Virus record (IMG/VR): IMGVR_UViG_3300034682_000170
Span: 1 to 27,345 of that record
Length of the DNA stretch: 27,345 nucleotides
Source: a virus
Lineage: Duplodnaviria > Caudoviricetes
Reading direction: 5' to 3' (one strand)
Every line of letters starts with the position of its first letter. Position 1 is the first letter of the stretch. The notes beneath the pieces were generated by a model. It did no database searches and had not been told where the DNA came from. It worked only from the letters and a program-made list of their open reading frames with translations. The position numbers and the translations under genes were made by a program. This document shows, in pieces, positions 3,091-9,559 of the stretch.

Positions 3091-3480
3091 TCACCCCCTG
3101 GCAGCCAGATAGCGACAACGCATCACCGAATAGACATCGCTGGCCAAGGTGACATGGGGGAGAGCTGGCGCATCAAGACCGATCATCATGTCGCGACGAT
3201 CAATAGGGATAGAGGGGTGCGCTACCGGGCCGCGCAAATGACCGACAATGCCACCAAGGCGGCGAACCGTGTCCACTTCAATCAGCGAAGAAACAGGCAC
3301 AACCGTCAGCCAATCAGCATTGAATCGGTCGCGCTCCAGGGCGGCGCGAAGGGTGGCAGGACGGGCAGACTCTGGGCGATTCGCCACGGAGAAGCGTTGA
3401 ACCTTTGAGCGGCTGGCCATCAGCACATCAACCGCCTTCTCAAGCAGGTCAGGGGAGGGGGATACAAGGGCCAGGATCAT
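3091..3480 (-). CDS. hypothetical phage protein
   Basis: Start at 3480 overlaps the cro stop (ATGA); 129 aa. Confidence 0.65.
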   Translation of the reverse strand: MILALVSPSPDLLEKAVDVLMASRSKVQRFSVANRPESARPATLRAALERDRFNADWLTVVPVSSLIEVDTVRRLGGIVGHLRGPVAHPSIPIDRRDMMIGLDAPALPHVTLASDVYSVMRCRYLAARG

Positions 3481-3707
3481 GACTTGGGATCCCGCTTTGC
3501 AAGCACCTGCTTTCGCCACTCGTCGGTATCGATACCGGGCAGCACAGAGCCGATCAGCTCCAGCAACTTGATAGCCGGGTATCGGTCCAAGTTAACCAAT
3601 TTCTGTATGTACGACTCAGAAACGCCAAGCGTATCGGCCGCAGCTTTAACTGTATGAGACCAGCGCCTCGCGCCCCATTTTGAAGCGATTGCATCCCGAA
3701 ACGTCAT
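3477..3707 (-). CDS. cro: Cro-like HTH regulator
   Basis: 76 aa, HTH VKAAADTLGVSESYIQKLV; divergent from the repressor; first gene of the early operon. Confidence 0.75.
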   Translation of the reverse strand: MTFRDAIASKWGARRWSHTVKAAADTLGVSESYIQKLVNLDRYPAIKLLELIGSVLPGIDTDEWRKQVLAKRDPKS

Positions 3708-3722
3708 TTAAACAGCCCTTCG

Positions 3723-3806
3723 CAACCCAAAACGAAGCGAGTATAGCCATTTAAAATTCAAATTGCACTGCCTGTGCTTTACCGTTGCACTGATAGTGCT
3801 AGACTA
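3723..3806. promoter_or_regulatory. cro/cI divergent promoter-operator region
   Basis: Minus GTGCAA-17-TATACT (cro); plus TGC-TAGACT extended -10 (cI); CCAAAACGAAGCG at 3727-3739; GCAC-N5-GTGC palindromes at 3765-3777 and 3787-3799. Confidence 0.65.
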
Positions 3807-3866: not shown

Positions 3867-4487
3867 ATGTCCGAAACCAAAATGATCTCTGACCCTGAGA
3901 TGGATCGACAAAGAGCACGACTGATGGGCAACAAGATATACAAAGCCCGAGTTAGGCGGTGGCTTTATATATCCGAAGGGGCGAGCGCATTAAACATGCC
4001 GGCAAGCACCCTGGCCAATTACGAGCGGGGCGACAGGCTTGATGTGCTGGGCCGCTGGATGAACAACATGGAAAGGATTTTTGCCCCCACGCTGGGGGTT
4101 AACGTCAACTTCCTACTCGGCATGACAGACGATGACTGCACAGAAGAAACCTGGCGGGCCAATCAGAGACTTGGGAAAGAGATCTCAACCCTAGCGGGCA
4201 GTGAGAAGGGGTTATTTCCATTTCAGCTTGAGAATGACGGGATGCGGCCCGCGCACAAGAAAGGCGAGGTTTTACTGTTCGAACCCACCGACCATGTTGA
4301 TAAGAGCCAGGGCGGCCTCTACGTCGTGGAGATAGATGGAGCTATCACCCCAAGGTTATTTTCACGCAACGTTGATGGTGAAGGGTGGAGGGTAAAGGAT
4401 GGGGTCAGCGAGGAAACAATCACGGATGAAACGATGTGCTCTATCAAAATAAAAGGGGTCTACCGCTGTAAAGTGACCGACCTGTAA
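3867..4487 (+). CDS. cI: CI-like phage repressor (HTH plus degenerate S24-like domain)
   Basis: HTH ISEGASALNMPASTLANYERG, LGVNVNFLLG; C-terminal S24-like fold (LENDGMRP...GGLYVVEIDGAITPRLF); start ATG 3867 after CAGGA. Confidence 0.8.
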   Translation: MSETKMISDPEMDRQRARLMGNKIYKARVRRWLYISEGASALNMPASTLANYERGDRLDVLGRWMNNMERIFAPTLGVNVNFLLGMTDDDCTEETWRANQRLGKEISTLAGSEKGLFPFQLENDGMRPAHKKGEVLLFEPTDHVDKSQGGLYVVEIDGAITPRLFSRNVDGEGWRVKDGVSEETITDETMCSIKIKGVYRCKVTDL

Positions 4488-4517
4488 AAAGCCTGCCGGT
4501 ATAGCCGGGCTTTTTTT
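4487..4517 (+). terminator. intrinsic terminator after cI
   Basis: Imperfect GC stem followed by T7. Confidence 0.6.
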
Positions 4518-4528
4518 CGCCTATACAA

Positions 4529-4582
4529 AACCCAAAACGAAGCGCAAAGAGACGTTGACATGCCAAAACGAAGCGTAGAAGT
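4529..4582 (+). promoter_or_regulatory. promoter with two direct-repeat operators (PL-like)
   Basis: TTGACA at 4555-4560 flanked by CCAAAACGAAGCG at 4532-4544 and 4563-4575; -10 box unclear. Confidence 0.6.
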
Positions 4583-4619
4583 AGAAACAGCAAGAAAACT
4601 TGAAGGTGCAGCCCTGGAT

Positions 4620-4862
4620 ATGAGGGGGCTGATGGCGCTGGCTGAGCGAGTTCTCACCGGCATCCCGCAAGATCGACAGTTTGACAGTGTCATCAATGAC
4701 CTGATGGCCATCCAACACCACGGCGCGAGAATCCAGGAAGCACTTGGCCAATCACATGAGGTACTTCATGAGCTGAGCAATAAGCAGACTGATTTACTCA
4801 TGCACCAGGTAACACAACCAGGCGGATTACTCAGTCATTTGGAGGCAGTTGCAGCGTCATGA
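4620..4862 (+). CDS. hypothetical helical protein
   Basis: Start moved from 4560 (inside the promoter) to ATG 4620 (alternative 4632); ATGA overlap with next gene. Confidence 0.6.
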   Translation: MRGLMALAERVLTGIPQDRQFDSVINDLMAIQHHGARIQEALGQSHEVLHELSNKQTDLLMHQVTQPGGLLSHLEAVAAS

Positions 4863-5224
4863 TCACTGGAAAGGAATTCACCGCCATGCCGGGCCATGGA
4901 TTGGCGGCCAGAGAACTGGGCTTCTTGTTGCTGCATTGCGAGGGCGCATTGAGTCAGGACATCGAGCGCATCACCGGCATGGATAGCGCAGAACAGAGCA
5001 GCACAACACGCTCAATAATGAAGAAGCTGGAGGCCAGAACACAAAGCCACATGATCAGCCGCGCCTTCTCTCTCGGCATCATCATGAGTCGGGTGATCTG
5101 CTTCGTACTGGCATGCCTATCTGCCGACTACCATGACAGCATGAAGAACCGGAGCCCCATCAAGGGAGGCAGGCCGAGCAGCGTAATGGTCAGGATCAAG
5201 ACCAGCGCCAGAGACATAGTGTAA
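4859..5224 (+). CDS. LuxR-type HTH-only phage regulator
   Basis: GLAARELGFLLLHCEG...RSIMKKLEARTQSHMISRAFSLGII matches the LuxR C-terminal HTH pattern; no ligand-binding domain. Confidence 0.6.
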   Translation: MITGKEFTAMPGHGLAARELGFLLLHCEGALSQDIERITGMDSAEQSSTTRSIMKKLEARTQSHMISRAFSLGIIMSRVICFVLACLSADYHDSMKNRSPIKGGRPSSVMVRIKTSARDIV

Positions 5225-5261
5225 CGTATCACGGAGAATCGCCGCCGTTACGTAACGCAAG

Positions 5262-5290
5262 AGCCCAGCCACTGAGCTGGGATTTTTTTT
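5262..5290 (+). terminator. intrinsic terminator
   Basis: CCCAGC-CACTGA-GCTGGG followed by a T-run. Confidence 0.7.
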
Positions 5291-5305
5291 GCCTGAAACG
5301 GTTCA

Positions 5306-5350
5306 TTTAATATTAAATTAATATACTATTGGTATTAATTTAATATTAAA
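5306..5350. repeat. AT-rich 11-bp-period repeat array B (par operator/centromere)
   Basis: Cores at 5309, 5320, 5331, 5342, immediately upstream of the parA RBS (GGAGG). Confidence 0.75.
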
Positions 5351-5363
5351 AGGAGGGTTTTAC

Positions 5364-6002
5364 ATGATTATTGCAGTAGCGCACAACAAGGGCGGAGTAG
5401 GGAAAACCACTGCCACGGTACAACTGGCCGGGGAGCTGAAACCTGACCTCATTATCGATCAGGATGCACACCAAGGGATTGCCATCATCAACGCCCGGCG
5501 GCCCGCTGAACAGCGGTGGAGCGTACTGGCAGGGCTAAACAAGAGCGAGCTGATAAAGGAGCTGAATGGCTCAGGCAACAAGCTGATTTTGATCGACTGC
5601 GGCGGGTTTGACTCAGAGCTTACCCGCATAGCCATTGCCGCTGCCGACCTCATTATTTGTCCAAGCAACGACGACATTACAGAGCAGATCGGATTAGTCA
5701 GGTTCAACAAGGTGCTGTCCGAAATCAGCAAGGCTGCTGACACAACCATCACCGCAAACGTACTGATGACCAGGACGAACCCAAGCAGAAAGAATTTCAG
5801 CGCCATCAGCGAGGCCATCGACTCCCTGCCACACCTCAGAATGATGAGCAGTAAATTGAGCCGAAGGGCTGACTTCTCTATCCAAATGGAATATGGGCTT
5901 GGGGTAACCGAGAGGGCAGCGACACGAAGCAGTGAAGCGGGCAAAGAGGTCGTTGTGATGGTCAACGAAGTCAGAGAAAAACTTGCAAACCCCACGATTT
6001 AA
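5364..6002 (+). CDS. parA: ParA/ParF-family partition ATPase (type Ib)
   Basis: 212 aa; deviant Walker A HNKGGVGKTT, DQDAHQG, Walker B LIDCGG; no N-terminal HTH. Confidence 0.92.
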   Translation: MIIAVAHNKGGVGKTTATVQLAGELKPDLIIDQDAHQGIAIINARRPAEQRWSVLAGLNKSELIKELNGSGNKLILIDCGGFDSELTRIAIAAADLIICPSNDDITEQIGLVRFNKVLSEISKAADTTITANVLMTRTNPSRKNFSAISEAIDSLPHLRMMSSKLSRRADFSIQMEYGLGVTERAATRSSEAGKEVVVMVNEVREKLANPTI

Positions 6003-6042
6003 TATTAATTTAATATCATATTAATATTAAAAGGGTATTAAA
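5998..6042. repeat. AT-rich 11-bp-period repeat array C
   Basis: Cores at 6001, 6012, 6023, 6034, between parA and its partner gene. Confidence 0.75.
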
Positions 6043-6282
6043 ATGAAGAGAAAGGCACTTGACTTAACATCTCTCGGTGAAGGCGCGGCGTTGAGAGAAG
6101 CGGTGACAATAGACACACCAAGTAGGAAAGCGGCAACAAAGCCCAAGGAGATTAGAAACATGCCGGTAGAGTTCTTTAACCGCCATGCAGCACTAAAGGC
6201 CCAGGGTAAAACCGGCCTGCTTTTCACAGCGTTCATTATTGAGGCAACCAGAAAGGCACTTGAGGAACACGAACAGCAGTAA
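6043..6282 (+). CDS. small centromere-binding partition partner (ParG-like, probable ribbon-helix-helix)
   Basis: 79 aa directly after parA; flexible basic N-terminus, C-terminal IRNMPVEFF...FTAFIIEATRKALE. Confidence 0.7.
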   Translation: MKRKALDLTSLGEGAALREAVTIDTPSRKAATKPKEIRNMPVEFFNRHAALKAQGKTGLLFTAFIIEATRKALEEHEQQ

Positions 6283-6351
6283 CCAAAACAATGCGGGCCA
6301 GGATGTAAGAGATCCCGGCCCGCGAGTTGATAGCACCTTGGAGGGGTAACC

Positions 6352-6498
6352 ATGCAACTAATTACGCATTCTAACAAAACTCGAAATCGCCTGACAGGTC
6401 TTTTCGCCCTGCCGCGCAATGAGTTAGCTCAGACCCTTGTCAGCCTTGGGGTCAGCCACTGGGTAGCAGTGGCGATAATGCGCAGCGTGAGTCGATAG
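6352..6498 (+). CDS. possible 48-aa small protein
   Basis: Strong GGAGGGG RBS; MQLITHSNKTRNRLTGLFALPRNELAQTLVSLGVSHWVAVAIMRSVSR; followed by a hairpin; overlaps the opposite-strand ORF. Confidence 0.4.
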   Translation: MQLITHSNKTRNRLTGLFALPRNELAQTLVSLGVSHWVAVAIMRSVSR

Positions 6499-6666
6499 CA
6501 ACAAGCCCCCGCCCTGGGGGCTTGTTATTTCCATGGACAATGCCTTTGCCTCCATCACCAGCGCCGTGACCTTACCGTCACATACCTCCGGGCTCATATA
6601 GCAAACAAGCTCAGACAACAGCACATCCAAGCGCCTGGCCACTTCTGTATTGACATACATCGTCAT
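6424..6666 (-). CDS. small protein paralogous to 9210-9455 (candidate antirepressor 2)
   Basis: 80 aa from ATG 6666; RLDVLLSELVCYMSPEVCD aligns with RLAAKLRALVLYQTPEVCD. Confidence 0.6.
   Translation of the reverse strand: MTMYVNTEVARRLDVLLSELVCYMSPEVCDGKVTALVMEAKALSMEITSPQGGGLLLSTHAAHYRHCYPVADPKADKGLS
6500..6530. terminator. hairpin / possible terminator
   Basis: AACAAGCCCCC-GCCCT-GGGGGCTTGTT 11-bp perfect stem then ATTT. Confidence 0.55.
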
Positions 6667-6731
6667 TATCAAACCCGTTATTTATTGATTTATCCCGCGA
6701 CAAATACTACTCCGACCAAGCCATGGCTGCT

Positions 6732-6775
6732 CGCCACTTATGGCGGATTTGCTACGCTAAAAACCATAAATGGTT
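6732..6775. promoter_or_regulatory. two CCA-N4-TGG palindromes, candidate XRE operators
   Basis: CGCCACTTATGGCG (6732-6745) and AACCATAAATGGTT (6762-6775), 30 bp apart in the divergent intergenic region. Confidence 0.4.
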
Positions 6776-6845
6776 GTCAGATCTTACAACCCGTAAGACG
6801 AGCGACATCTCATGACGGGCGCGGGATGCTCATAAGGAACCATCT

Positions 6846-7223
6846 ATGCGCCGCACGTACCTGGACGACGATGATCGGGAATACGTAATCGCCACCAAAC
6901 GGCACCTAAGCCAGCTCATTGAGCGGAGAGGGATGGCCATTGACGACCTGGCCTATGAGACAGGGATCCCGGTGACAAGCCTACGGCGGTGGCTCAACCC
7001 CAAGAACAGCACCTTCATGCCGCTGCCAGCTGCCCGCCGCACCTGCCGTGCGCTCGGCATCGAGATCAGCGACATGCTGCTCCCTGTTGGCCATGACCGG
7101 CGACTCGATAGGGCAATGCGGATCTTTCTCCAGCTCCCCCCCGAGCTGGCCGACACAGTGATCGATCAGCTGCTGGCCATCGCCGGGGCCCTGGGCAAAC
7201 CCCTTCCCTTCGACGAGGGATAG
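6846..7223 (+). CDS. XRE-family HTH transcriptional regulator
   Basis: 125 aa; LSQLIERRGMAIDDLAYETGIPVTSLRRWLN...ALGIEISDML; TAAGGA RBS. Confidence 0.85.
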   Translation: MRRTYLDDDDREYVIATKRHLSQLIERRGMAIDDLAYETGIPVTSLRRWLNPKNSTFMPLPAARRTCRALGIEISDMLLPVGHDRRLDRAMRIFLQLPPELADTVIDQLLAIAGALGKPLPFDEG

Positions 7224-7236
7224 TTGCTTCAATAGC

Positions 7237-7264
7237 ACCGCGTCTAATCAGTTATATGTTAAAC
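7237..7264 (+). other. XerC/XerD (dif-like) recombination site
   Basis: ACCGCGTCTAA-TCAGTT-ATATGTTAAAC, 11-6-11 geometry; XerD arm 9/11 and XerC arm 6/11 identical to E. coli dif. Confidence 0.65.
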
Positions 7265-7779
7265 AAGGCTCTGCGCCAGGCGTTGGCCAGGCGAACGGCG
7301 CGAAGGTGCCATAACTGACAACCAACCAGGCGCCTGACCACCTGGTTCACCCCTTCAAAATATGTTGCGACATTGTTGCTTTTCGATGGCCGATTTCATT
7401 GTTTGGCTTTGCTCCTCTCTAACGTGCCTGAGCCTCGTTTTACGCAATCTCGACCCGAGCCCATGCCTTGCCATGGCTTTTCTTTTTGATGGCCACAGCG
7501 GTGGTGGTGTGGATGGATGACTGCGGTATCACAGCGACAACCACCCCCCTTCCTGCTGAGCCGTCTTTAAGGCCACTGTCGCTTGACGCCCCCGGATGTT
7601 GATCGGCCCCTTTATGGGGCATGGCTGGTTCAAGTTGGGGTTTGTGGACTGGGGTGTGGGGGCTTGCCCCCACGAAGGGGGTAATCTGCTGACCGGCGGG
7701 TGGCTTGCCGCCCTGCAAGGTCAGGCATTACTCGCCCTTGCTCTGCTCTGGCGGCGGCCAGCTTGCTGGCCTGCATAGC

Positions 7780-8100
7780 CAGGCGTTATCCCCGTTATCG
7801 ACAGATAACGGGACCCAGACAATAAACTCTATCTCTTAGTTCTTTGTTTAGGTGTCTTAGAGAATCTTGCATCTATTCGCTATGCCACTGCATACAAGGG
7901 AGGGCAGGGGATGCATTTATATGTGGATAACCGTGCGTGACCGTGTGCCAACCCACAGGGCAGGCTGTAGCATGGGCTGAATGTGGATAAATCGAGTCAG
8001 GAGCGCCCCGGAATTGATTGGGCTGTAGCGCCATTACTGGCGAGGCGGAACGACAGACGCCGCCGTGAGGCGGTTATATGGTAGGGAATGACGGGGGTTG
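7780..8100. other. plasmid replication origin downstream of repA
   Basis: Perfect DnaA boxes (TGTGGATAA) at 7922-7930 and 7982-7990; palindrome CCCGTTATC-GACA-GATAACGGG at 7791-7812; AT-rich tract ~7820-7880; same layout as IncFII origins. Confidence 0.7.
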
Positions 8101-8105
8101 CGGCT

Positions 8106-9005
8106 TTACTCTCGTGGTAATGGTTCCATGGCCAGCACCTCGAGGCGATACACGGCCAGCGACACGGCCCGGTTAAACGCCGCGGGGTCCTGCCTTGAGC
8201 GAAGAGCCTCATCAGGCGTCATCTTCTTGAACATGCTGTCTGCCACCTCGCGGCGCATTGCGTCCTTACCAGAGGCGACCAGGCGCTTGGCTCGGCGGAT
8301 CTGGGCTGCGGTGGCTGATTTGTTGTGGCGGTACTCGAAGGCACGCTGCTTAAGCCTGTCCATGCGCAGTTGGCAGTAAGCCTTGTGGGACAGGTTGAGG
8401 GCATACGCAGGATCGAGTCCGTCCTTCATCCAAGCATCTTCGGTGCGCCACTTCTCCCACGCCTGTTCCCGCACCTTGATCGCCTCTTCGGCACCCACAC
8501 CCACCATGTCCCAGAACAGTTCAGTGACTGTGATAGCTTTGTAGTACCAACTGCCAGCAGCGGGATCCCAAAACTTATCACACTCGACAATACCCATTTT
8601 CTCCAGATCCTGGATAAGTCGAGATCCGCGAGTGATCGAGTGATTACCGGCGGCAGATGTAGAATCAAGGCGACACTGGCGGGTGAGCACATCAACGGAG
8701 GTTTCAACCTGCCAGGTGATCACGTTGGTGTAATGCAGCATGCCTAAACCCATCTCGTTGAGAGAGTTGGCCCTGTGCATATTCCAGTGCCGTGTACGAC
8801 CAATGAGGGGACGAAGCGGAACCCAACCAGGCCAGCAAGCCAGATCGCGCTTGGCGGCTATGTTACAGGCCTTGCCGATAAACTGGGGGCGACCCTTGTG
8901 GTGACCGGGCTTTTCAAACTGAGGAGTGGCATTTGCCACATAGCACCCGCGCACTATGGCCGGGCGAGGGGTGTCCTGATGGACGTAATCAGTCAGGTTT
9001 AGCAT
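8106..9005 (-). CDS. repA: IncFII-family plasmid replication initiator
   Basis: VETSVDVLTRQCRLDSTSAAGNHSITRGSRL...WDPAAGSWYYKAITVTELFWDMVGV matches RepA1 (SAAGKLSITRA); likely start ATG 9005 (299 aa), alternative GTG 9086. Confidence 0.88.
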   Translation of the reverse strand: MLNLTDYVHQDTPRPAIVRGCYVANATPQFEKPGHHKGRPQFIGKACNIAAKRDLACWPGWVPLRPLIGRTRHWNMHRANSLNEMGLGMLHYTNVITWQVETSVDVLTRQCRLDSTSAAGNHSITRGSRLIQDLEKMGIVECDKFWDPAAGSWYYKAITVTELFWDMVGVGAEEAIKVREQAWEKWRTEDAWMKDGLDPAYALNLSHKAYCQLRMDRLKQRAFEYRHNKSATAAQIRRAKRLVASGKDAMRREVADSMFKKMTPDEALRSRQDPAAFNRAVSLAVYRLEVLAMEPLPRE

Positions 9006-9033
9006 GGTTCCGCCTAAAAAAGTGGCGGCAAGG

Positions 9034-9062
9034 TTGCCAATGGCCAACACCTTGAGTAAACT
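9034..9062 (+). promoter_or_regulatory. promoter of antisense RNA
   Basis: TTGCCA-17 nt-TAAACT, oriented opposite to repA. Confidence 0.7.
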
Positions 9063-9068
9063 GACTGT

Positions 9069-9146
9069 GCGATTAGTCGTGCTCACTGCTTTGTGGTGAT
9101 GCCCGAATCAGAAACCCAGCCCGGCAAGGCTGGGTTTCGTCATTTT
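9069..9146 (+). ncRNA. CopA/Inc-like antisense copy-number control RNA (~78 nt)
   Basis: Promoter at 9034-9062; 11-bp stem GAAACCCAGCC-CGGCAA-GGCTGGGTTTC (9111-9138) then GTCATTTT; complementary to the repA leader; ends approximate. Confidence 0.65.
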
Positions 9147-9157
9147 GGTCTTGCCAG

Positions 9158-9186
9158 ATTTTAAATTCACATCAGGATATGCAAAA
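9158..9186 (-). promoter_or_regulatory. probable repA promoter
   Basis: Minus strand TTTGCA-16 nt-TAAAAT upstream of the target hairpin. Confidence 0.45.
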
Positions 9187-9209
9187 ACCCTGACTCAATG
9201 CCCGAGACT

Positions 9210-9455
9210 TTAGCACGGAGAGTGCAGAACGGGCAAGCTACAACCCGTTTTGGGTTGACCCTTCACTGCTACCACCAAAGACTCAGCCTCCTTTGCAGCC
9301 CAATCCAGCTCGTTGGCGATGTGTTGATCACACACCTCAGGGGTCTGGTACAAAACCAGCGCTCGCAGCTTGGCGGCCAATCGTTCCATCCTATCTGATC
9401 CAAACGGCTCGATCACCTGATCATCGTGATCACCCGTCACATTATCCCCACTCAT
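9210..9455 (-). CDS. LexA-controlled small protein (candidate antirepressor 1)
   Basis: 81 aa from ATG 9455 with GGGAGG RBS; SOS box 21 bp upstream; paralog at 6424-6666. Confidence 0.75.
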   Translation of the reverse strand: MSGDNVTGDHDDQVIEPFGSDRMERLAAKLRALVLYQTPEVCDQHIANELDWAAKEAESLVVAVKGQPKTGCSLPVLHSPC

Positions 9456-9476
9456 CCGCAACCCTCCCGGCTGGCA

Positions 9477-9492
9477 CTGTATATCTATACAG
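9477..9492. promoter_or_regulatory. LexA (SOS) box
   Basis: CTGTATATCTATACAG = CTGT-N8-ACAG with AT-alternating core; overlaps a TACAGT -10-like hexamer on the minus strand. Confidence 0.88.
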
Positions 9493-9528
9493 GCAATTTT
9501 GACACCACCCGCCCGACTGGGCAAGGCG

Positions 9529-9559
9529 AAAAAAGAAAGCCCCGGCACTGGGCCGGGGC
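9529..9559 (-). terminator. terminator closing the virion operon
   Basis: GCCCCGGC/GCCGGGGC stem followed by TTTCTTTTTT on the minus strand. Confidence 0.8.

Follow-up and report, generated by a model that had tools for sequence, protein, structure and literature searches.

Two paralogous small genes behind a LexA-type box and an XRE-divergent promoter: a candidate two-input antirepressor switch in an Aeromonas phage-plasmid

The DNA studied here, called the window throughout, is one single virus record of 27,345 bases (IMGVR_UViG_3300034682_000170) and is a fragment of an Aeromonas phage-plasmid of about 39 kb. It carries two paralogous small genes, which we term smA and smB, on two different promoters, together with a CI-like repressor that lacks the catalytic dyad of S24 peptidases. 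We propose, at a probability of about 0.58, that both small proteins are antirepressors of this CI and that one is controlled via LexA and the other via an XRE regulator, the latter likely together with a LuxR protein bound to an acyl-homoserine lactone (AHL). The duplicated small-gene switch with its two promoters is real, conserved and well supported; antirepression is its presumed function. In the proposed mechanism an SOS response would lead to cleavage of LexA and to synthesis of smA, upon which CI would leave its three operators and the lytic genes would be expressed. Independently, XRE with AHL-bound LuxR would drive smB to the same end. In relatives, the FadR protein of the host might in addition hold the smB promoter shut until long-chain fatty acids are taken up.

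The repressor and its surroundings comprise the following features:
3867..4487, plus strand: CI-like repressor with a helix-turn-helix (HTH) and a dyad-less S24-like domain
3477..3707, minus strand: cro-like HTH gene, first in the lytic operon (Pfam HTH_3 E 1.6e-4, under the cut-off)
3727..3739, no strand assigned: candidate CI operator at the cro promoter, 13 nt, direct-repeat family D2

In an alignment with Aeromonas LexA the column of the catalytic serine is occupied by glycine in CI (ENDGMR) and that of the catalytic lysine by proline (ITPR); nothing in CI corresponds to the VAAG cleavage loop. The first-pass annotation of this DNA had described a CI without the S24 Ser/Lys dyad, and the alignment bears this out. 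The lysine is present in none of 11 CI-family sequences, the serine is kept in three of them, and the Pfam S24 match of CI is weak (E 0.0018). Judged by sequence, the CI proteins of the window and of its relatives are likely non-self-cleaving. Since the dyad is missing in 11 of 11, an external inducer would be needed if the phage is SOS-inducible. CI is presumably the repressor in view of its cro-like neighbour, homologs of which adjoin cI in relatives, of HTH matches in relatives, of three 13-nt repeats and of weak fold matches to the CI of coliphage 186. The repeats, with identical copies at 4532-4544 and 4563-4575, i.e. at the next rightward promoter, are candidate CI operators in view of their position. 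The fold matches, top-ranked in Foldseek, have E values of 6e-3 to 1e-2 and were obtained with a low-confidence CI model (mean confidence, pLDDT, 57). A wide fold search with the same model gave a best Z of 5.2, and a PDB sequence search with CI gave no match. The two repeat copies lie in the promoter of a two-gene operon (4530-5224) 3' of cI. The true start of the gene called at 4560 is probably later, because the 4560 start overlaps the promoter; the second gene of this operon matches PHROG 3282, which carries a sigma factor label, and is 50-99% conserved.

The two small genes are located at a distance from cI:
9210..9455, minus strand: smA, 81 amino acids (aa), candidate SOS-induced antirepressor
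6424..6666, minus strand: smB, 80-aa paralog divergent from the XRE gene, candidate SOS-independent antirepressor
6293..6323, minus strand: terminator-like hairpin downstream of smB

The open reading frames (ORFs) stand as first given, and the paralogy claimed for them holds: BLASTP aligns smA and smB with 11 identities in 23 positions (E 2e-5), and hhalign joins the two families with a probability of 96.3 (E 2e-9). A "PEVCD" signature proposed for the family applies to the subtype of the window and does not extend to the family as a whole, as relatives read GPDMCD, GPDNCD, GPDVCD or GDDVAD. In an alignment of 24 sequences, from which the GDDVAD variant is absent, only the proline is invariant, and L..L, C, D and A are found at 90% or more. 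A search of 1.84 billion representatives with a profile hidden Markov model (HMM) returned 17 matches, namely 12 short family members and five long repetitive proteins that we set aside as helical-repeat noise. We found no link of the family in Pfam, PHROG, PDB, Atlas or Foldseek, searches that short helical proteins can escape; the best ESM Atlas score was 0.76, below lead level. The family is previously undescribed. The smA core is modelled as a helical hairpin around a Pro-x-x-Cys-Asp turn without any strand (mean pLDDT 68), and the model found nothing in PDB or BFVD at E 0.001. Complex prediction for CI and the smA core scored 0.00, which is no answer and evidence neither way. The conserved acidic N-terminus of smA is lost in smB. 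Recent gene conversion between both genes is unlikely because only 38 of 66 core bases are identical.

Expression of smA is governed by a compact promoter region:
9539..9559, minus strand: terminator of the tail operon, precedes the smA promoter
9496..9559, minus strand: smA promoter, -35 TTGCCC at 9519-9524 and -10 CAAAAT at 9496-9501
9477..9492, no strand assigned: LexA-type box overlapping the predicted smA start site

The box is the sole CTGT-N8-ACAG in the window, where 0.26 would be expected by chance. It had been called a perfect LexA box: a LexA-type box is indeed located there, and with one mismatch to CTG(TA)5CAG it is a near-perfect one, a match reached in none of 200 shuffled windows. 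All nine loci share the same order of terminator, TTGCCC, 17-18 bp, CAAAAT, 3-4 bp, box, 15-21 bp and start codon; their boxes have one to three mismatches to CTG(TA)5CAG and vary in the central bases. The same class of box, with a likewise AT-rich centre, precedes lexA and recA on an A. caviae chromosome. The smA box also fits CT-N12-AG, the conserved motif of lux-type boxes. Together with the LuxR encoded by all complete relatives and with a CTGT-N8-ACAG site upstream of xre-luxR in ARM81ld-type phages, this could mean that both promoters answer quorum sensing, that the box is bound by the phage LuxR and that an SOS arm does not exist. We consider this very improbable. The box lies over the start site and not at -42, its AT-rich centre resembles the lexA and recA boxes of the host, and the LuxR-less elements L015-L017 have an equivalent box in front of their rep-proximal small gene. 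Because of its position and of these LuxR-less counterparts, a LexA site is favoured over a lux-type box.

Other elements also combine such boxes with XRE genes. L015 (5385-7205), L016 and L017 are myovirus-type phage-plasmids with the same XRE and with the FadR-like site described below; their XRE-divergent promoter is directed at tail gene D, after which come a LexA box, an unrelated 69-aa gene and rep, and their CI is also devoid of the catalytic lysine. Possibly, one antirepressor is reached by two promoters in these elements. In the linear plasmid phage pHm21 (L019:5346-6366), an element without LuxR, the XRE-divergent 98-aa gene has a LexA-type box at 5786. The 69-aa ORF of L015-L017, the pHm21 ORF and an ORF of phage LPM4 were rejected as family members (HMM scores of at most 2 bits).

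Conservation was assessed in nine elements in which both gene positions are covered (the window, L001, L002, L003, L007, L008, L010, L011 and L014; repeated copies of one contig were taken as a single element). All nine have smA together with its box, and eight keep smA and smB intact; smB is intact in nine of the 11 loci that cover its position. Comparison of the smA core with that of L007 revealed 17 synonymous and five non-synonymous codon changes, i.e. purifying selection. In seven elements, identity of the smA core tracks identity of CI (Mantel rho 0.80, P 0.002) and does not track XRE (rho -0.07), and cross-paralog similarity of smA and smB rises with CI identity (rho 0.52, P 0.005). XRE and rep separate smA from cI and are both exchanged independently. 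L002 and the window have XRE proteins of 96% identity, CI proteins of 26% identity and different smA/smB types. The smA core thereby follows the CI type and is unchanged across a rep swap, as expected of a repressor-binding protein; CI binding is a prediction from these patterns, and with about four CI types among kin the covariation is suggestive only. It had been proposed that one antirepressor family was duplicated and wired to two sensors. The duplication and the two promoters are substantiated by the eight of nine elements that keep both genes, by the box geometry and by the covariation of smA with CI, and antirepression itself stays the conjectural part.

The same patterns bear on two other functions. 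smA and smB may act on a host target, for example as a toxin, a modulator of RecA or LexA or an anti-defence protein, and may merely be co-inherited with CI types. No homology fixes their function, and LexA-controlled prophage operons also carry genes other than antirepressors, such as dinI homologues, according to the available part of PMC3121763. A host target would not be expected to vary the core with the CI type while promoter and N-terminus stay constant, and we regard this explanation as improbable.

The second function is replication or partition, with the following modules concerned:
8106..9086, minus strand: IncFII-type RepA with an in-frame 26-aa leader (Pfam PF02387 E 1.6e-38)
9034..9146, plus strand: candidate antisense copy-control RNA with a promoter match at 9034-9062, two hairpins and a terminator at 9111-9138 (z -3.9)
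5364..6282, plus strand: partition cassette of parA and a small partner gene (PHROG 164 ParA E 1.5e-27), both conserved in relatives

smA is located where a repressor of the rep promoter is found in IncFII plasmids (the CopB arrangement). Its promoter is followed by the small gene itself, the rep promoter, the antisense RNA, the leader peptide and repA; on the strand of smA and rep the scoring gave no terminator between the two, and smB adjoins the par cassette. The family could accordingly serve replication or partition instead of acting on CI, with the LexA promoter mainly boosting rep. We consider this quite unlikely, as smA is 98% identical in the window and L011, which share their CI despite different Rep types, so that a CopB-like co-inheritance of smA with Rep is not found, and as the modelled smA is a helical hairpin without strand. 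Even with smA as an antirepressor, the absence of a scored terminator means that SOS may also raise rep transcription, the smA transcript possibly running into the rep leader. Replication control at 9034-9185 is IncFII-like, with opposing promoter matches and a structured antisense candidate of about 80 nt for which no Rfam family reached the gathering score. Most relatives have a different Rep in the repA slot, and the 26-aa leader also occurs in relatives with another type of Rep.

We now turn to the second arm, in which smB is transcribed divergently from a regulator gene:
6846..7223, plus strand: XRE regulator (PHROG 18342), homologous to the XRE of phage ARM81ld
6733..6744, no strand assigned: candidate activator site, an inverted repeat GCCA-N4-TGGC with its centre at about -42 relative to the putative smB promoter
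6772..6791, no strand assigned: candidate XRE or LuxR-type site, a 20-bp palindrome 5' of xre with a TGT-N8-ACA core

The divergent arrangement of smB and XRE noted in the first-pass annotation is confirmed, with 179 bp between both starts. The XRE proteins of the window and of ARM81ld are 34% identical over 106 aa (E 2e-7), and the former has no recognised sensor domain. In ARM81ld and Apop, as described in the available part of PMC10432266, XRE and a LuxR with bound C4-homoserine lactone (C4-HSL) together activate a divergent small ORF (smORF) that inactivates cI. The cue, which had been regarded as unknown, is less so in view of this homology to a co-activator that needs LuxR and C4-HSL. 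Five of five complete relatives, and one contig of 77% completeness, carry a luxR gene, unlinked to xre, for a protein with an AHL-type autoinducer domain; the gene was not found in one relative represented by a 32% fragment. In the three plasmids in which its distance was measured, luxR lies on the lytic side of cI, 9.9-10.6 kb away; on this side 3.9 kb separate cI from the end of the window, and the luxR position of the relatives lies beyond. Host AhyR could serve in place of a phage LuxR, and plasmid pO23AP3 carries luxR and lacks this XRE module. The smB promoter combines a conserved -10 with the lack of a clear -35 and contains the inverted repeat near -42, which is the position of an activator in lux-type promoters, and the palindrome near -85. 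The -42 repeat does not match the ahyI box of the host; palindromes similar to that at 6772-6791 occur 5' of xre in ARM81ld-type and in LuxR-less elements. This layout fits an activation by two factors, both sites being candidates.

In L001 (38713 onward), L002, L003, L021 and L022 luxR is divergent from the lysis operon, and the interval upstream of luxR contains a conserved TGTGA-N6-TCAC motif, which we take to be CRP-like. CI may control luxR or the late promoter because a sequence located between cro and cI recurs in the luxR-lysis interval of L001. The P2-like phage LPM4 (L006:8753-9318) encodes an unannotated XRE homolog and a divergent 61-aa ORF with a strong FadR-like site and without luxR; its record annotates ORFs of the opposite strand at this position.

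Several observations weigh against the proposed switch, in particular against its smB arm. No sequence or fold link connects the smA/smB family to any known antirepressor, and four ARM81ld-type smORFs score at most 1.6 bits with the family HMM. luxR is not found within the window and does not form an operon with xre there or in the relatives; a LuxR domain was found in none of five other XRE-bearing elements searched (pHm21, pACil, LPM4, pEI-2083-2 and pWP8), so that XRE does not imply a phage LuxR, and the -42 repeat of the window does not correspond to CT-N12-AG. Start and promoter of smB are deleted in two of 11 loci (L013 and L014) that keep XRE, and the smB core is under weaker purifying selection (11 versus 11 and 7 versus 7 synonymous versus non-synonymous changes). 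The smA core also correlates with parA (rho 0.62) and with the 4859 gene (rho 0.44), and smB tracks parA (rho 0.83) and the 4859 gene (rho 0.88) better than CI (rho 0.65); smB thus tracks the whole cI-par block, and its covariation with CI may be linkage. As the Mantel tests use only seven related elements with about four CI types, their P values are optimistic. The smB deletion (L013:6620-6960, and L014) lies between short repeats and was seen in two assemblies.

smA could then be the sole antirepressor, with smB as a modulator that either binds CI or smA without freeing the operators (a decoy) or targets the repressor of a superinfecting or co-resident relative. The faster divergence of smB, its loss in L013 and L014 and its lack of the conserved acidic N-terminus of smA agree with such a role, and antirepressors acting on non-cognate repressors are described in the available part of PMC3121763. 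A decoy is less easily reconciled with smA and smB cores that are more alike within an element when the CIs are alike, or with the cognate antirepressor that holds the XRE-divergent position in ARM81ld and Apop according to the accessible text of PMC10432266. We judge a modulator role of smB unlikely and prefer two antirepressors of one CI.

The smB promoter may have a further input:
6704..6721, minus strand: putative smB -10 TAGTAT (6704-6709) and, overlapping it, a FadR-like operator (6705-6721) that is decayed in the window and strong in relatives

The likeness to FadR sites was noticed post hoc and scored with a matrix built solely from the 17-bp operator consensus in the available part of PMC9329746. 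With this matrix, 15 loci were scored, and in seven of them the site has rank 1 of the whole sequence; among the seven are the complete plasmids L001, L015 and L016 (37-39 kb) as well as LPM4 and an ARM81ld-like plasmid, the promoters of the latter two being otherwise unalignable with this family. It has rank 3-13 in five more loci (one is the 1.4 kb L012, with a score near zero), rank 15 in L011, rank 30 of about 27,300 in the window and rank 359 in L002; it is decayed in the window, L002 and L012. No such site is present in ARM81ld and pHm21, which were scored separately. Ranks were similar with a matrix derived from three host sites. Counted over both strands, each element has 5-17 loose matches that agree at 10 of 12 core bases. 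One A. caviae chromosome, taken in place of that of the window's own host, has fadR and FadR-like sites before fabA and fadL, which emerged only by a targeted look upstream of these two genes. A strict consensus scan of this chromosome (at most three mismatches) was discarded: it gave 17 sites versus 61 in the reversed control, none was recognised at a fad gene, and one was the pdhR box. A pdhR-site matrix fits most phage sites worse than the FadR matrices, and fits the site of the window slightly better (rank 12 versus 26-30). Another GntR-family protein or XRE itself could be the binder. Control of the smB promoter by FadR in relatives is thus possible at somewhat less than even odds, and in the window the probability is lower. 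Doubtful, in our estimation, is the complete logic in which lysis would follow either SOS (LexA, smA) or the conjunction of XRE and the unlinked phage LuxR-AHL with a fatty-acid uptake that relieves host FadR (smB). If it applied, a FadR operator would recur on XRE-divergent promoters of unrelated Aeromonas phages, and prophage induction would be licensed by long-chain fatty acids as a cue, with animal surfaces or lysed neighbours as their source.

The gene order of the window is tyrosine recombinase, early operon, cro, cI, partition cassette, XRE gene, rep, tail, head and terminase, the structural genes being named by likeness to annotated relatives. A DNA search revealed three circular Aeromonas plasmids of 38-39 kb that share this layout and carry full sets of phage genes:
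L001: NZ_CP121813, circular Aeromonas plasmid
L002: NZ_CP097210, circular Aeromonas plasmid
L003: NZ_CP149128, circular Aeromonas plasmid

Further relatives were found among viral and metagenome contigs. Aeromonas is presumably the host genus because the plasmid relatives and the named smA/smB-family proteins, except one compost metagenome entry, come from Aeromonas species. Two scans of GTDB genomes (with XRE and with a CI alignment) found no relative, and single-protein scans of viral contigs with CI and with smB found no new locus. Four public runs, which belong to four studies, also have contigs on the region, none of which spans it in one piece. A protelomerase is not annotated in the three circular relatives, with the window being a fragment and no search aimed at protelomerase having been made; two relatives have direct terminal repeats. 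The unannotated stretch 7468-7787 is about 80% identical to stretches in plasmids of Aeromonas, Edwardsiella, Klebsiella and Citrobacter and is possibly origin-related. Record NZ_AP026896.1 (W03), a "plasmid" of 4.9 Mb, is a chromosome with lexA, recA, fadR and ahyI.

Apart from DNA damage, little is known of the cues that induce prophages in nature, and phages whose repressor is non-cleavable were left aside in the main survey of small-protein switches. By gene duplication such phages could have a non-SOS route besides an SOS route; two concrete candidate cues are C4-HSL and long-chain fatty acids, and about four matched CI types are available for specificity tests of the family. Literature listings, with most subscription papers outside their coverage, contained no report of the smA/smB family, none of paralogous antirepressors of which one is under LexA and the other under XRE control, and none of FadR acting at the promoter of a phage antirepressor. 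Six record identifiers of the elements were not found in 12 of the 22 supplementary files of PMC10432266, the other 10 of which may bear on novelty.

Among known systems, the XRE-LuxR-smORF modules of ARM81ld and Apop (Silpe et al. 2023, in the available part of PMC10432266) share with the window a homologous XRE (34%), a divergent small ORF near par genes and an Aeromonas host, and with its relatives an AHL-domain LuxR on the same element (37-41% identity to that of ARM81ld). In contrast to these modules, luxR of the relatives is unlinked, the HMM shows no relation between the small ORF families, the records of the relatives are circular, and the SOS arm would be a second paralogous small gene instead of CI proteolysis. 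The CI is non-cleavable by sequence, a class excluded from the repA-telN search of that study as far as its accessible text goes. Because an xre-luxR operon and a cleavable cI are absent, the window does not belong to this module as defined. VP882 with VqmA-phage/Qtip and the Vibrio TF63/TF72-smORF modules, set against the window by description and not by sequence, similarly combine a divergent transcription factor with a small gene in an SOS-independent route, yet act on an autoproteolytic CI in linear phages. The smB site resembles the host FadR regulon (available part of PMC9329746) in its 17-bp operator match over the -10, the usual repressing position, and in its likeness to the A. caviae fabA and fadL sites, and differs in its location on a phage promoter, its decay in the window, L002 and L012 and its absence in ARM81ld and pHm21. 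Coliphage 186 Tum, N15 AntC and Gifsy GfoA/GftA (via the available part of PMC3121763) likewise pair a non-cleavable repressor with a small gene away from the immunity region. The box of smA overlaps its promoter 3' of a terminator, as a promoter with a LexA box after a terminator also precedes the Gifsy antirepressor operons, and the weak best fold matches of CI are to 186 CI; unlike Tum, AntC and GfoA, smA has no detectable homology and no dinI neighbour was seen, and a second paralog stands under another regulator. What appears to be new is a duplicated putative antirepressor that would replace repressor self-cleavage as the SOS arm. By analogy, the system of the window would work like a LexA-controlled antirepressor of the Tum, AntC and GfoA type joined to an ARM81ld-type XRE module.

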